Under the pieces are notes generated by a model. The model was not told where the DNA came from, made no database searches, and was given only the letters and a program-made list of their open reading frames with translations. A DNA stretch of 53,945 nucleotides, from NCBI GenBank assembly GCA_964460195.1, contig CAYWPJ010000006.1, positions 1 to 53,945 on the forward strand, written 5' to 3'. A program made the position numbers and the translations under genes. Shown here one piece after another: positions 4,406 through 41,454 of the stretch (position 1 is its first letter; every line of letters starts with the position of its first letter). Origin of the DNA: an uncultured Methanosarcinales archaeon (GTDB lineage Archaea > Nanobdellota > Nanobdellia > Woesearchaeales > GW2011-AR9).

Positions 4406-4957
4406 ATGATTAATATGGAATTTGACACCGAATGCACTCCGGCCATGCCGGCCGGTCATAACTATATAACGCCGGGAAAAAAAGCTGAGCTTAAAGAGGG
4501 ACCCCTGGCCGAAGAAGGAATCCTGGCGGCATACCGGCAGAATCCCGCCCGCTTAGTGGGGTTATGCTATACACCTTACCGGATTGAAAAGTTTGAAGGG
4601 CTGGGAGAAAAAGTGGACAACGTCCATATTGTCGTCGTTAATGATTTCAATCAGGCCAATAGACTATTCCAAAGCCGCAAATACGACTTTATCATCCTCG
4701 CCGGGAAAAAGAGAGAAAAGGAACGCTTGCTCGGCAGCCTTTGCACCGAAGCGGCGAAATTCAGCCAAAATCTGAGTCCGTACCACCCTGTTTCTATGGT
4801 AGATGTTGAAAACGAAACCAATCTCACTTTAGGGTTAATCCAACGAATGGCGGAAGCCCACGACTTAAGGTTGGTTTTTGGCTCAAAGAAGGATGGAGTA
4901 ATTGATGCCGGCCTGTCAAAGTGCCTGGATGAGCGGCGCGAATCTAAAAATTTATAA
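4406..4957 (+). CDS. Hypothetical protein
   Basis: 183-aa ORF lying 17 nt after the previous ORF. No motif recognised. Confidence 0.4.
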   Translation: MINMEFDTECTPAMPAGHNYITPGKKAELKEGPLAEEGILAAYRQNPARLVGLCYTPYRIEKFEGLGEKVDNVHIVVVNDFNQANRLFQSRKYDFIILAGKKREKERLLGSLCTEAAKFSQNLSPYHPVSMVDVENETNLTLGLIQRMAEAHDLRLVFGSKKDGVIDAGLSKCLDERRESKNL

Positions 4958-4981
4958 AGAACCTGCCTTCTTGACAGATAA

Positions 4982-5290
4982 ATGAAAATTCCTAAGACCA
5001 TCAAGCGTTATTGTAAATACTGCCGGAAACACACCGAGCAGAAAGTCGCCCAAACCAAGAAGAAAAATCCCAGCTCATTAAGCCGGGGATCAAAATACCG
5101 GGCGAGAAAAAGGGGCCGGGCGAGGGGCACCGGCAACTGGGGACGCTACTCAAAACCGGCCGTGACCAAATTCAAGCGGACCGGCGCCAAAAACACCAAG
5201 AAAACCGACTTGCGCTACACCTGCAGCCTCTGCAAGAAAGCAACTTCCCAGGCTTATGGGATCCGGTCAAAAAAGGTTGAATTCGTATGA
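4982..5290 (+). CDS. rpl44e: 50S ribosomal protein L44e (eL42)
   Basis: [22 protein letters not shown].. has a zinc-ribbon CxxC...CxxC in a very basic protein. It is first in the conserved archaeal L44e-S27e-aIF2alpha-Nop10 order. Confidence 0.9.
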
Positions 5291-5460
5291 TTACTAAAAG
5301 CAAATTTATCAAAGTCCGGTGCGCTAAATGCAAGAATGAGCAAATCATCTTTGGCAATGCCAGCAGCATCGTGACCTGCCTCGTCTGCAATAAAGAGTTG
5401 GCTTATCCCACCGGCGGCAAATCAAAGATTTCCGCCAGGGTTCTCGAAGTGCTGGAGTGA
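5287..5460 (+). CDS. rps27e: 30S ribosomal protein S27e (eS27)
   Basis: Not in the ORF track (57 aa). Hand translation gives [57 protein letters not shown], with a C-x2-C..C-x2-C zinc ribbon. It overlaps the L44e stop by ATGA. Confidence 0.85.
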
Positions 5461-5515
5461 TTGGGCTTGGTTGGGGGAAGCTAAACAAACGCCCAAAAAC
5501 ATTTACACAAAAACA

Positions 5516-5523
5516 TTTATAAA
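5516..5523 (+). promoter_or_regulatory. TATA box (TTTATAAA) for the aIF2-alpha transcript
   Basis: TTTATAAA is centred about 27 nt upstream of the ATG at 5546, which suggests a leaderless mRNA. Confidence 0.55.
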
Positions 5524-5545
5524 ATACTTCCCTTCCCGGCCATAA

Positions 5546-6322
5546 ATGCTCTACCGACGCACCGGCATGCCGGAAACTGATGAAATCGTCCTTTGCAAAG
5601 TGACGAGTATTTTCCCTAATTCTGTCTTCGTCGAACTGGTTGAATACGATAAGCCGGGCATGGTCCACATTTCGGAGATCTCACCGGGAAGAATCCGGAA
5701 CCTGAGAGATTTTGTCAGCATCGGCCGGGAAATCGTTTGCAAGGTCCTGAGGATTGACCGGGAAAAAGGGCATATCGACCTTTCCTTAAGGAGGGTCAAT
5801 TCCACCCAGCACCAAGCCAAGCTGGACGAAATCAAGCAGGAATTGAAAGCCGAAAGCCTGATCAAAAACCTTTCCAAAAAACTGAAAATCCCAGCGGAAA
5901 AGCTTTACCAACTGCTCAGCGAGAAGATCTTCAAGGAATATTCCCATCTTTACCTCTGCTTTTGGGAGATCGTCAACGGGCAGGCGGATCTGGAAAAGTT
6001 GGGCGTAGAAAAAAAGCTGGCTCAGGAAATCACAGCGGCGGTCCTGGAGAAATTCAAGCCGGAGAAAATCACTCTCAAAGGCGAGATTCGACTGCAAACT
6101 TACAGCAGTGACGGCCTGGACAAGATCAAAAAGACTTTGGCGGAAATAGGGAAAATATCTGAAAGCCTGTCCTTAAGCTACCTTGGCGCCGGCCGGTACC
6201 GGCTGATCATTGAGGATTCTGACTACAAGCCGGCGGAGAAGAAATTAAAGAAAGTCGAGGGGATCCTGGAGAAGTTCGTTGACAAACTCTCGACGGCTGA
6301 ACTGAAAAGAGATGACCAATAA
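5546..6322 (+). CDS. eif2a: Translation initiation factor aIF2 alpha subunit
   Basis: N-terminal S1 domain (EIVLCKVTSI..GMVHISEISPGRIRNLRDF..GHIDLSLRRV). Length and operon context fit. Confidence 0.9.
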   Translation: MLYRRTGMPETDEIVLCKVTSIFPNSVFVELVEYDKPGMVHISEISPGRIRNLRDFVSIGREIVCKVLRIDREKGHIDLSLRRVNSTQHQAKLDEIKQELKAESLIKNLSKKLKIPAEKLYQLLSEKIFKEYSHLYLCFWEIVNGQADLEKLGVEKKLAQEITAAVLEKFKPEKITLKGEIRLQTYSSDGLDKIKKTLAEIGKISESLSLSYLGAGRYRLIIEDSDYKPAEKKLKKVEGILEKFVDKLSTAELKRDDQ

Positions 6323-23605: not shown

Positions 23606-23694
23606 AGCACAGGAGAGGGAGAAGTTTAAATAATTTGTGGGTGGGGGGCACAGTCAAGTTAACAATTGACTCTCCTCCACTTTATGTGAAGGTC

Positions 23695-23712
23695 GGAGCA
23701 TCAGCGACGAAG
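23695..23712. repeat. Partial copy C of the 24-nt motif (GGAGCATCAGCGACGAAG)
   Basis: Matches GGAGCAT-AGCGACGAAG of 41435..41451 with one inserted C. Confidence 0.55.
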
Positions 23713-23780
23713 TTTTTTGCCACCGGATGTAGAGATTGACACCGTAGCATTAGGTTGAGTTAAGTTTTTCGTTAGTAAGG

Positions 23781-23794
23781 CGAGGAGGGGCGTT
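23781..23794. repeat. Inverted-repeat arm (promoter-distal) of the two-gene cassette
   Basis: CGAGGAGGGGCGTT. Its partner at 25723..25737 is the reverse complement with one extra G/C. Confidence 0.65.
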
Positions 23795-23852
23795 GAAAGT
23801 GGTAGTAATCTTTTTAAGGTGGGGCGTGCTTTTCTATTGAAAAGAGGCTGAA

Positions 23853-25226
23853 ATGAAAGAACAAGAAAATCTGCGGATTTTCGGTTCCAGAAATGCGACA
23901 CATTTCTCGGAATCAGAAATACTTGAGTTAAAGACATCAACATCCGAACTGAAAGAGGCGATAATCTCAATAGTTTCTATTCTCAATAAGCATCAGAAAG
24001 GAGAGCTGTATTTTGGTGTTAAGCCGAATGGAGAAGTAATTGGTCAATTTGTCGCCGAGAAGACCATGCGGGATATATCCAAGACTATCTCTGACAATAT
24101 TGAACCAAAAATATTTCCTAAGATTAATGAAGTACATTTGGAAGGAAAGAAATGTGTTCAGGTTGAGTTTTCTGGAGAACACGTTCCCTATTATGCTTTT
24201 GGAAGAGCGTATATCCGCGTCGGAGATGAAGACAAAAAGATTAGCTCGCAAGAGTTAGAAAAGCTGATTTTGAAGAAAAACAGAATCCTATGGGAAGAAG
24301 AAATTTCTGAGAAAAATCCGAAAGACGTTAATGAAGAAACACTGAGAGATTTTGTTGAGAGAGCAAATGCAGCAAAACGAATAGATTTCAAGTTTACCAA
24401 TGCGAAAGCGGTACTGAACAAGTTAGGCTTGTTGAAAGATGGAAAATTACTGAAAGCCGCTGAAGTCTTGTTTTGCGATGAAAACCAACACGAAGTACAG
24501 GCAGCGGTATTTGCAGGAACTGATAAACTGACTTTTCTAGATATTCGGCAGTTTAAGGGAAATATTTTTCAATTGCTACAACAGTCTGAATCATACATTA
24601 AAGAACATATCAATTGGCGGGCTGAACTGAAAGAGCGTATTCGGAAAGAAATTCCCGAAATTCCCATTAGAGCGATTACAGAATCATTAGTAAACTCTCT
24701 CTGCCATAGGGATTATGAAAACAGGAAAGGCAATGAAGTTGCCATCTTCAAAGACAGGGTAGAGATTTACAATCCAGGATTATTTCCGGAGGGTTATGAT
24801 CCAAGAGATTTCTTTACCGGGACTGAAAGATCAATTTTGAGAAATCCGCTAATAGCCAATACACTTTATTTGAGCAAAGATATTGAGCGTTGGGGGTCTG
24901 GAATTAAAAGGATTCATGACGCTTGTAAAGAAGAAAAGGTTAAAGTTGAGTTTAAGAAGCTCAAAAGCGGGTTTTTGGTAGTCTTTGATAGGAAGTTCGA
25001 AGTTATGGGCGGTGTAAAGTTCGGAGATGGTTCGGAGAAAAGTTCGGAGAAAATTTTGGCTTTAATTAAAGAGAATAAATCTATTTCTGCACGAGAGATG
25101 GCTACAATTATTGGAATTTCACAGAGGGCGGTAGAAAAGCAACTTGCCATCCTAAGAAAGGAAAGACGTATTAAAAGAATTGGCGGAGCGAAAGGGGGAT
25201 ATTGGGAAGTTGCGAGTACCACTTGA
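23853..25226 (+). CDS. Schlafen/AlbA_2 domain + HATPase_c_4-like ATP-binding domain + C-terminal wHTH protein
   Basis: N-terminus SESEILELKTS..ELYFGVKPNGEVIGQ is AlbA_2-like. CHRDYENRKGNEVAIFKDRVEIYNPG resembles the ATPase-like module. C-terminus ISAREMATIIGISQRAVEKQLAILRKERRI is a wHTH. Confidence 0.8.
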   Translation: MKEQENLRIFGSRNATHFSESEILELKTSTSELKEAIISIVSILNKHQKGELYFGVKPNGEVIGQFVAEKTMRDISKTISDNIEPKIFPKINEVHLEGKKCVQVEFSGEHVPYYAFGRAYIRVGDEDKKISSQELEKLILKKNRILWEEEISEKNPKDVNEETLRDFVERANAAKRIDFKFTNAKAVLNKLGLLKDGKLLKAAEVLFCDENQHEVQAAVFAGTDKLTFLDIRQFKGNIFQLLQQSESYIKEHINWRAELKERIRKEIPEIPIRAITESLVNSLCHRDYENRKGNEVAIFKDRVEIYNPGLFPEGYDPRDFFTGTERSILRNPLIANTLYLSKDIERWGSGIKRIHDACKEEKVKVEFKKLKSGFLVVFDRKFEVMGGVKFGDGSEKSSEKILALIKENKSISAREMATIIGISQRAVEKQLAILRKERRIKRIGGAKGGYWEVASTT

Positions 25227-25239
25227 GAAAGACGAAAGA

Positions 25240-25247
25240 TTTATAAA
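25240..25247 (+). promoter_or_regulatory. TATA box (TTTATAAA) for ORF 25281
   Basis: Lies 34-41 nt upstream of the ATG at 25281. Confidence 0.4.
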
Positions 25248-25280
25248 TGGGGGTGTTTTTAGGGGTGTTAGGGGTTAAAA

Positions 25281-25718
25281 ATGGTTCATTTAAAATATCA
25301 CATTAGGAAGCTTCGGTACGGATCTAATGGTAGATGGAACTCTTGGGAATACGAAGCATTTTCCGATAAACCAGATTATAAAGCCTACTATGGTGAACAA
25401 AGTGGAATATCCGCAAGACACCTTACTATTGACTCACTTGCCCGAGAATTATCAACGTATCCTGGTATTACTAATACCAGTTTTGTCCCAGAAGAAAGAT
25501 TAACATTTCCTGGCGTTACTAATGTAAGTTATTTGGCTTCAGAAAAAATAAGGGACTGTGTAAAGGGAGTCCAAATTGTAACTTCTACTCCTACTAATAC
25601 CACATTCATGCAATGGAGTACCGTCAGCGATGAGGAACTAGGCGAATTGACATCAAAGATTTTTGAACACTATAAAGAACGTAGAGAAAAGACTGGTGAA
25701 TTTGTTGCCTGTATATAA
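25281..25718 (+). CDS. Hypothetical protein
   Basis: 145-aa AT-rich ORF downstream of the Schlafen-like gene. No motif recognised. Confidence 0.45.
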   Translation: MVHLKYHIRKLRYGSNGRWNSWEYEAFSDKPDYKAYYGEQSGISARHLTIDSLARELSTYPGITNTSFVPEERLTFPGVTNVSYLASEKIRDCVKGVQIVTSTPTNTTFMQWSTVSDEELGELTSKIFEHYKERREKTGEFVACI

Positions 25719-25722
25719 GTAA

Positions 25723-25737
25723 AACGCCCCCTCCTCG
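25723..25737. repeat. Inverted-repeat arm (stop-codon-proximal) of the two-gene cassette
   Basis: AACGCCCCCTCCTCG starts 4 nt after the stop codon at 25716-25718. Confidence 0.65.
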
Positions 25738-25874
25738 TTAATAATTCTACCTTTTTTACGTCGTTTAGCGTAGGTGCCAATCTCAAAGTTTATCCAAAAG
25801 AACGTCAGCACAAGAAGGTCAAAGGTGGCCAAAAAATTGAAGTTAACGGTCTTTATCGTCCGCCCAGGCAGTCA

Positions 25875-33438: not shown

Positions 33439-33561
33439 ATGATGAAAAAGCCGGCTGGCTGAGCAAGAGGTAAAAAGCATAAACGTATGCGTCGCTGTTA
33501 AGTGAGCCAAGCCGGAGGTGAGAGTGCAATGTGCCGCCTCATCCCGAAGGAGTGAGAAAAG

Positions 33562-33576
33562 TTGCCCAAAGCCCGC
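33562..33576. repeat. Inverted-repeat arm (stop-codon-proximal) of the MazG-like cassette
   Basis: TTGCCCAAAGCCCGC ends 1 nt before the stop codon (33577-33579). Its partner is at 33972..33986, 13/15 complementary. Confidence 0.7.
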
Positions 33577-41430: not shown

Positions 41431-41454
41431 ACGAGGAGCATAGCGACGAAGAGT
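41431..41454. repeat. 24-nt motif copy B (ACGAGGAGCATAGCGACGAAGAGT)
   Basis: 22/24 identical to 6571..6594. It directly abuts the outer IR arm at 41454. Confidence 0.7.

Follow-up and report, generated by a model that had tools for sequence, protein, structure and literature searches.

The 53,945-nucleotide contig CAYWPJ010000006.1 (assembly GCA_964460195.1, an uncultured archaeon assigned by GTDB to the Woesearchaeales), referred to here over its full length as the window, contains an inserted unit between endA and the promoter of a gene for a 340-residue protein. That this unit is a mobile gene cassette of about 2.19 kb, extending from about position 23656 to 25847, is well supported. It is made up of a non-coding left end, a gene for a Schlafen-type protein, an internal archaeal promoter (P2, putative), a cargo slot and a non-coding right end, the slot being occupied here by an open reading frame of 145 codons, ORF145. 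Overall, these features are best explained by a mobile Schlafen cassette in which a conserved platform carries an exchangeable gene, and which moves in an integron-like manner; we put the probability of this interpretation at roughly 0.6. An initial annotation of the window had drawn the unit more narrowly, as a Schlafen gene and an ORFan forming a candidate defence or abortive-infection module within a short inverted repeat. In what follows, L numbers denote individual loci and C numbers contigs of the window genome.

The gene order endA, 340-residue gene, fen1 is retained in relatives, with endA and the 340-residue gene co-oriented. Both genes are present in 36 loci drawn from related genomes or metagenomes, and we surveyed the spacer between them in each. 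Its length is 13-142 nt in 23 loci, and such short spacers therefore represent the empty state of the site; in the window it is 2269 nt. The remaining 13 spacers span 313-2215 nt and hold unrelated genes, one or two to a spacer, for proteins of 71-332 residues. We conclude that the spacer is an insertion hotspot. Among the 36 loci, no spacer contains a homologue of the Schlafen gene or of ORF145, and relatives thus carry an unoccupied site between endA and the fen1-adjacent gene, where the initial annotation had suggested looking for one. The loci examined for spacer inserts were L003-L009, L019, L115, L116, L121, L130-L132, L140 and L142, and the landing point in the occupied loci was observed to lie just downstream of the TATA box of the 340-residue gene. 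Metagenomes were also scanned for a near relative that might supply a same-species empty site, and nothing above about 55% identity overall was returned. A tRNA scan found no tRNA gene in the window, and the unit is therefore not a tRNA-targeted island. The genome as a whole has 45% G+C and the sequence directly on either side of the unit about 50%; the 37-39% of the unit itself agrees with the earlier description of the region as AT-rich.

The same platform recurs in five or more other genomic settings, at 83-96% DNA identity, with differing cargo and identical breakpoints. Closely homologous Schlafen proteins, 83-91% identical, are encoded after ribosomal protein S2, an HTH_45 gene, TrmB or TFIIB. 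DNA of L042-L046 matches the window from 23714 to 25247, in L043 up to 25283, and a second block of matching DNA, up to 96% identical, runs from 25723 or 25728 to about 25785; between the two blocks lie unrelated genes. In an alignment of six copies, homology ends just past the TATA box TTTATAAA of P2 and restarts at (A)ACGCCCC in the right arm of the repeat, so that the boundaries of the slot can be written TTTATAAA/ and /AACGCCCC. P2 starts directly behind the Schlafen stop codon and is the last conserved segment ahead of the slot; nearly invariant in the six copies, it is limited to the close subfamily and absent from more distant Schlafen loci. The slot holds ORF145 in the window and in the decayed locus L022, a metallophosphoesterase (Metallophos, 333 aa) in L042, proteins of 400 and 77 aa in L044-L046, of 105, 91 and 77 aa in L043, and of 147, 174 and 121 aa in L060. 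None of the cargo proteins checked for defence families gave a convincing match. To judge from its sequence, the slot could be a recombination site in its own right.

Several further details of the copies were recorded. Three of them, those of the window, L043 and L060, have a forward, G-run-containing sequence resembling block 6 of the terminal repeats (described below) just after the TATA box of P2; the version in L060, at the position equivalent to TGGGGGTGTTTTT of the window, is AGGAGGGGCG. All five non-ORF145 cargo segments have (T/A)(T/A)AC immediately before the right-hand partner of this block, 6'. In L060 (532-1602 and 1852-3169), an IS4-type (DDE_Tnp_1) transposase gene has entered the left end of the platform, between block 6 and the promoter, and a frameshift divides the Schlafen gene of this copy.

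The Schlafen proteins of L044, L043 and L042 are 90%, 86% and 91% identical to that of the window genome, higher than the 76% for ribosomal protein S2, 71% for the recombinase described below and 66% for the HTH (helix-turn-helix) protein obtained in the same genome comparisons. The genome of L043 (G016) belongs to the same family as the window genome, and its version of the 340-residue protein is 55% identical. The names attached to close homologues mark the window genome as that of a Woesearchaeales-type DPANN archaeon. Together with the empty sites in relatives and the presence of the unit in other contexts, these identities support the view of the region as a cassette, taken already in the initial annotation, and as one that is horizontally mobile. 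As a separate observation, homologues of the Schlafen protein with 72-90% identity occur in metagenome-assembled genomes (MAGs) labelled as a bacterium of the candidate phyla radiation (CPR; Portnoybacteria) and as Methanosarcinales, and those with 47-62% identity in MAGs from many bacterial phyla. These homologues (P0006, L054, L055, L059, L063, L064-L069) reflect either wide cross-domain transfer or else binning errors.

The product of ORF145 has no match in Pfam, NCBIfam, PADLOC or PHROGs, which is in keeping with its earlier designation as an ORFan. That designation nevertheless fails, because one relative with 68% identity and 18 distant ones place it in a small family of 110-136-residue proteins with conserved motifs. 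The AlphaFold model, of fair quality with a predicted local distance difference test (pLDDT) score of 80.5, is a small α/β structure for which a search of the PDB returned no fold match (best E 0.17, template-modelling (TM) score below 0.3). The distant relatives have no adjacent Schlafen gene, and the contexts of two of these, L047 and L050, show no cassette hallmarks. The pairing with a Schlafen gene recurs once elsewhere, in L022 (positions 1175-2640) between Nre and GroEL/GroES. This copy is decayed: the Schlafen gene is truncated at its 5' end, has lost AlbA_2 and contains an in-frame TGA, the ORF145 homologue has a premature stop, and both ends of the cassette are gone.

This recurrence, in another genomic context and behind the same promoter segment, bears on whether the two genes form a defence or abortive-infection module whose products act together as a fixed pair, for instance one as effector and the other as sensor, or one as a toxin and the other as its antidote. 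P2 would place ORF145 under the direct control of the platform, and the Schlafen family does include proven defence proteins, among them demonstrated anti-phage tRNases (PMC13056530); PADLOC, however, recognises no defence system here and gives no system-level match for the gene pair. We consider the module unlikely. Five other cargo sets, none convincingly related to defence, occupy the same slot, and in five of six independent platform copies the Schlafen gene has a different partner. The pair itself was seen in two of seven copies, one of them the decayed L022, rather than as a conserved two-gene arrangement of the toxin-antitoxin or abortive-infection (TA/Abi) kind, and ORF145 homologues occur without a Schlafen neighbour. 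Because the cargo differs between copies at identical breakpoints, ORF145 is better regarded as a passenger than as a fixed partner; it is probably an interchangeable, unrelated gene expressed from P2.

The 14/15-nt inverted repeat originally taken to bound the gene pair is real, its arms CGAGGAGGGGCGTT and AACGCCCCCTCCTCG being mutually complementary but for one extra C/G, and the right arm begins 4 nt past the ORF145 stop codon (25716-25718). Owing to the single-base indel, the pair is absent from the list of an ungapped repeat finder, and the arms were confirmed by eye and by regular expression; with up to two errors allowed, the 1.36-Mb genome contains no other copy as close as a single-base indel. 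As the boundary of the cassette, however, the repeat cannot be sustained. Homology to other copies extends past the arms by 86 nt leftward (to 23695) and by 111 nt rightward (to 25848), and the arms prove to be the innermost pair of blocks in a longer terminal inverted repeat that is imperfect and composed of several blocks. The ends of L042, L043 and L044, each of 220-240 nt, contain up to six collinear mirror blocks, five or six per copy, which from the tip inward are GTTAGGCGA (the tip), TTTGAAAACCTGCC, GTTGTTGCC, TTTTTGCCACC, AAATTGGCACC and GGAGGGGCG, the last corresponding to the repeat seen first. The window keeps three of these, blocks 4, 5 and 6. Within the left end, GTGGTAGTAATCTTTTTAAGGT is invariant across all copies, and the right end shares 54 nt at 96% identity with L042. 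The outer parts of both ends match L060, from a Nanoarchaeota MAG (23695-23798 on the left, 25720-25848 on the right). The right-hand match stops exactly at TTGAAGTTAACG, beyond which L060 continues into its junction element and the window into the endA flank. The 8-mer AAGTTAAC occurs in exactly two places in the 54-kb window, 23656-23663 and 25840-25847, and it is because it is found solely at these two junctions that the unit is placed at about 23656-25847.

A second Schlafen subfamily (L054, L055 and L057) shares this layout but differs in the sequences of its blocks and in its cargo, which consists of a transglutaminase-like protein or of AsnC, LysE and deformylase. Rfam gave no match for the region or for five related loci, and the exact end motifs were found in none of the viral contigs of IMG/VR.

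Long multi-block inverted repeats, with an 8-bp direct repeat at both junctions, could also be the ends of a non-autonomous transposon mobilised in trans by a DDE transposase, AAGTTAAC then being an 8-bp target-site duplication; the tips in other subfamilies, which start TGTTAG, would suit such an element. This is quite unlikely. The right-hand copy of AAGTTAAC is common to the conserved end of L060 and therefore is not target DNA, and no duplications are present at L042, L043 or L044. Moreover, the genome contains no transposase with matching ends, the end motifs occur in it once, and insertions fall at one and the same nucleotide, next to the gene for a tyrosine recombinase.

This insertion point was defined from G016 (L043/L144), where the order is TrmB, GTCGTATAAC/160-nt junction element and platform ...TTTCGCCTAAC/ACCTATTAAACGCAG-TTTCAA-TTGCGTTTAATAGG, an 85-nt gap and a recombinase gene, the slashes marking the junctions. 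The platform and the hairpin-forming junction element thus sit exactly at a conserved TAAC/palindrome site next to the gene for an Xer-like tyrosine recombinase. The orthologous site of the window genome, on contig C48, is empty: GCGTATAAC/ACCTATTTGG is contiguous, with the same palindrome, and the neighbouring recombinase is 71% identical to that of G016. This apparently empty dock lies at C48:5637-5779, upstream of the recombinase gene (4858-5637, minus strand) and 142 nt from the contig end, and reads GCGTATAAC/ACCTATTTGGCGCAG...palindrome. At 11 of 13 related recombinase loci, an arm ending TAAC, followed by two bases and TATTAARCG, lies upstream of the gene; the arm is mostly TTGAAnnTAAC or TT[TG]CGnnTAAC, the whole also being expressed as (TT[GT]NN)nnTAAC-NN-TATTAARCG. 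The right tip of the window cassette, TTGAAGTTAAC, fits this docking arm, and GTCAAGTTAAC at the left junction resembles it in the form TTGAAnnTAAC. Insertion at a fixed point beside a recombinase gene is therefore seen in the G016 copy, by comparison with the empty site on C48, whereas the window copy sits at a look-alike site. Three more tyrosine recombinase genes were noted in the window genome, two on C24 and one on C1.

Junction elements of 150-200 nt precede the platform in related genomes, and in L060 and L042 they lie between units arranged in tandem; the window genome has none. Folded as single-stranded DNA, those of L043 and L060 form a long hairpin in which the TAAC/GTTA ends are paired (z = -6.8). 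The right end, junction element and left end of L043 together form one hairpin of 600 nt (z = -12), and the joined ends of the window cassette gave z = -4.3.

We propose that a recombinase of this Xer-like kind mobilises the cassette through conservative site-specific recombination, the crossover falling after TAAC, in a manner similar to cassette capture by integrons. A circular form of the cassette, whose joined ends could fold as one long imperfect hairpin, would recombine with a look-alike site in the chromosome, and the window copy would have landed, without a junction element, at the secondary site GTCAAGTTAAC. Excision would be expected to leave the joined empty site ...CAGTCAAGTTAAC/GGTCTTTATCG... 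and to produce the circular junction ...ATTGAAGTTAAC/AATTGACTC.... Because it has neither a junction element nor a recombinase gene nearby, the window copy may now be stranded.

That the Schlafen-type protein is itself the capture or mobility factor, an analogue of an integrase encoded upstream of promoter and slot, seems very unlikely. Its gene is the sole one conserved in every copy, the order gene, promoter, slot recalls that of intI, Pc and attI, the protein combines nuclease-type and DNA-binding domains, and the five non-ORF145 cargo segments all end in (T/A)(T/A)AC; but the protein showed neither a fold nor a motif of a recombinase or transposase, the known activity of the family is tRNA cleavage, and thousands of homologues have no such ends. 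Least credible of all is that the repeat is a regulatory or terminator feature, or arose by chance, among ordinary chromosomal genes, since, although a 14/15-nt repeat shared by two intergenic stretches is no extreme rarity and the right arm precedes a candidate T-run terminator, both ends are conserved amid different flanks and cargo and relatives have an empty site.

A number of observations weigh against the integron-like cassette that we favour. The left limit of the unit is less sharp than the right and could lie anywhere within 23656-23695. The window contains no recombinase gene, and the cassette in it has no junction element. The 260-residue recombinase of G016 scores 197 bits against XerA_Arch (cut-off 220) and 190 bits against the integron integrase model (cut-off 265, with the match split in two), below the NCBIfam cut-offs for both, and at E <= 1e-60 the recombinase was detected in just 12 of 41 relatives. 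Sites of the dif type have a 28-bp format of two 11-bp arms and a 6-bp spacer (PMC2958812). The junctions do not fit a clean 11-6-11 arrangement, there being a difference of 2 nt in spacing between the left and right types and a weak match of the arms. A canonical 28-bp dif reading of the junctions was tried and abandoned, inverted half-sites being present with irregular spacing and weak arms, and the palindrome on the recombinase side is not a classical dif site because its loop varies (6-17 nt or more). The score of the extended left/right repeat was matched by 4 of 1000 shuffled sequences and by 4 of 1491 genomic controls (p ~0.003). Taken alone, the inverted repeat of the window is thus only moderately unlikely by chance, and for this reason the argument for a cassette is built on conservation across loci. 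Both promoters, P1 in the left end and P2, are read from sequence. With respect to function, PADLOC gives the Schlafen protein partial domain matches only, to pAgo-associated models, and the published work on prokaryotic Schlafen proteins reports no defence for a HisKinase fusion, HisKinase-HTH not being among the four architectures tested (PMC13056530). The coordinates of all features are collected in Table 1.

Table 1. Features of the Schlafen cassette and its ends (coordinates are those of the window; P1 and P2 are putative, as assigned from sequence)
Feature	Position	Strand	Sequence	Remarks
Left junction core	23656..23663	.	AAGTTAAC	preceding GTC completes GTCAAGTTAAC
Non-coding left end	23664..23852	+		homologous to L042-L046 from 23714, to L060 from 23695
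Head motif	23695-23712		GGAGCATCAGCGACGAAG	within left end
Block 4, left	23713-23724		TTTTTTGCCACC	
Block 5, left	23732-23743		GAGATTGACACC	
Block 6, left	23781-23794		CGAGGAGGGGCGTT	left arm of the repeat in the initial annotation
Promoter-like sequence P1	TATA-like box 23810-23819		AGTAATCTTTTTAAGG	putative; in left end
Prokaryotic Schlafen gene	23853..25226	+		457 aa; Pfam domains
Internal promoter P2	25227..25247	+	GAAAGACGAAAGATTTATAAA	putative; resembles a transcription factor B recognition element (BRE-like) plus TATA box TTTATAAA at 25240-25247
Degenerate forward copy of block 6	25248..25260	+	TGGGGGTGTTTTT	with 25723-25737, nests an inverted repeat round ORF145 alone
Cargo gene ORF145	25281..25718	+		145 aa; small α/β protein of an uncharacterised family
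Non-coding right end	25723..25847	+		holds 6', T-run, 5', 4' and tip
Block 6', right	25723-25737		AACGCCCCCTCCTCG	right arm of the repeat in the initial annotation
T6 run	25752-25757			likely terminator; right end
Block 5', right	25773-25784		GGTGCCAATCTC	
Block 4', right	25824-25836		GGTGGCCAAAAAA	
Tip	25837-25847		TTGAAGTTAAC	matches arm beside recombinase genes

The first protein of the cassette has the AlbA_2, HATPase_c_4 and winged-helix architecture originally assigned to it. SLFN_AlbA_2 (PF04326) matches residues 20-130 with E 9.2e-17, HATPase_c_4, a degenerate GHKL-like ATPase domain, matches with E 7e-18, and the C-terminal winged helix corresponds to HTH_11/HTH_24. The motif defined for prokaryotic Schlafen (pSlfn) nucleases, E-x4-(E/D)-x-K (Perez Taboada et al. 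2026, PMC13056530), is intact as E-x4-E-x-K (E20-SEIL-E25-L-K27), and 118 of 120 close homologues retain it, so that the protein, with both the nuclease domain and the catalytic motif, belongs among the pSlfn nucleases. In the same study, HisKinase-HTH is the second commonest architecture (19.2%), and defence together with tRNA cleavage was shown for Ig-like and DUF262 fusions. By analogy with these tested bacterial members of other architectures, the most likely role of the protein is that of a regulated RNA (tRNA) nuclease acting in defence against viruses.

Sequences related to the ends were also observed elsewhere in the genome. The partial motif copy noted earlier about 70 nt beyond the left arm is the head motif GGAGCATCAGCGACGAAG, of which further copies stand at 41435-41451 and in other cassettes. 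Head modules of the form GTTAGGCGAGG...CGTCCCCGAAGGAGTC or ...GGAGCATAGCGACGAAG lie at C2:~60994 (-), C4:~38694 (+) and C29:~568 (-), and in the window at 41435-41451 and about 33500-33570, some adjoining its two other repeat-bounded cassettes. The sharing of these modules suggests one common cassette system. In addition, a 120-150-nt intergenic repeat is present in five copies with 92-99% identity (C2:56875-57016, C2:61036-61177, C3:54113-54262, C10:21861-22003 and C7:45410-45530); its inverted ends, GGCTGGCTGTCCCATAATT ... AATTGTGACCCAGCC, give it the appearance of a miniature inverted-repeat transposable element (MITE), and one copy abuts sequence resembling a cassette head.

More broadly, and only tentatively, these findings raise the possibility that DPANN (Woesearchaeales-type) archaea operate an undescribed integron-like capture system consisting of an Xer-like recombinase, a 'TTGAAnnTAAC/palindrome' dock and giant folded ends, in which the Schlafen platform would act as a second-level collector, a mobile cassette with a promoter of its own and a site-specific slot for the exchange of further genes, so that cassettes would be nested. 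Were this so, it would offer tiny, recombination-poor archaea a concrete route to acquire and reshuffle accessory genes, those of the defence type included. The locus also places a Schlafen-type nuclease on a platform mobile among archaeal lineages, the family having recently been linked with antiviral cleavage of tRNA in organisms ranging from bacteria to humans. With an occupied and an empty dock, fixed cargo breakpoints and an insertion at a secondary site, the locus makes the proposed recombination point after TAAC directly testable.

Among known systems, the pdif modules of Acinetobacter are gene modules bounded by inverted XerC/XerD sites. The cassettes described here resemble them in being discrete modules with inverted half-sites, found in many contexts and presumably moved by a recombinase of the Xer type. 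They differ in that no regular 28-bp 11-6-11 site was found, in their long multi-block ends, and in being chromosomal modules of an archaeal host. The Schlafen protein itself resembles the HisKinase-HTH pSlfn proteins, which join a SLFN nuclease with E-x4-(E/D)-x-K to a histidine-kinase-like ATPase and an HTH domain (PMC13056530), although the account given there does not extend to Schlafen genes borne on cassettes that have conserved ends and a slot for cargo.

The closest parallel is with integrons, built from IntI, attI and attC and described from archaea by Ghaly et al. 2022 (PMC9668308); in the literature on comparable systems, these IntI-based archaeal integrons were the only ones found. 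As in integrons, the single point at which cassettes insert adjoins the gene for a tyrosine recombinase, units form arrays (L060 and L042), and the same unit occurs across genomes. The junction element likewise forms a hairpin with paired ...TAAC and GTTA... ends, which in some copies extend to RYYYAAC and GTTRRRY (GCCTAAC/GTTAGGC), and some junction elements may have been counted as attC sites in that work. There are also differences. The window contains no IntI integrase with the IntI-specific additional domain beside an array, and the recombinase concerned is a 260-residue, Xer-like protein that scores below the integrase cut-off, with no such domain shown. The folded region is far larger, comprising a junction element of 150-200 nt and ends of 130-240 nt, and the cassettes have several genes with what appear to be their own promoters, the window copy lying away from any recombinase and without a junction element. 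If our interpretation is correct, the system would resemble an integron in the way it works while being built from different parts.

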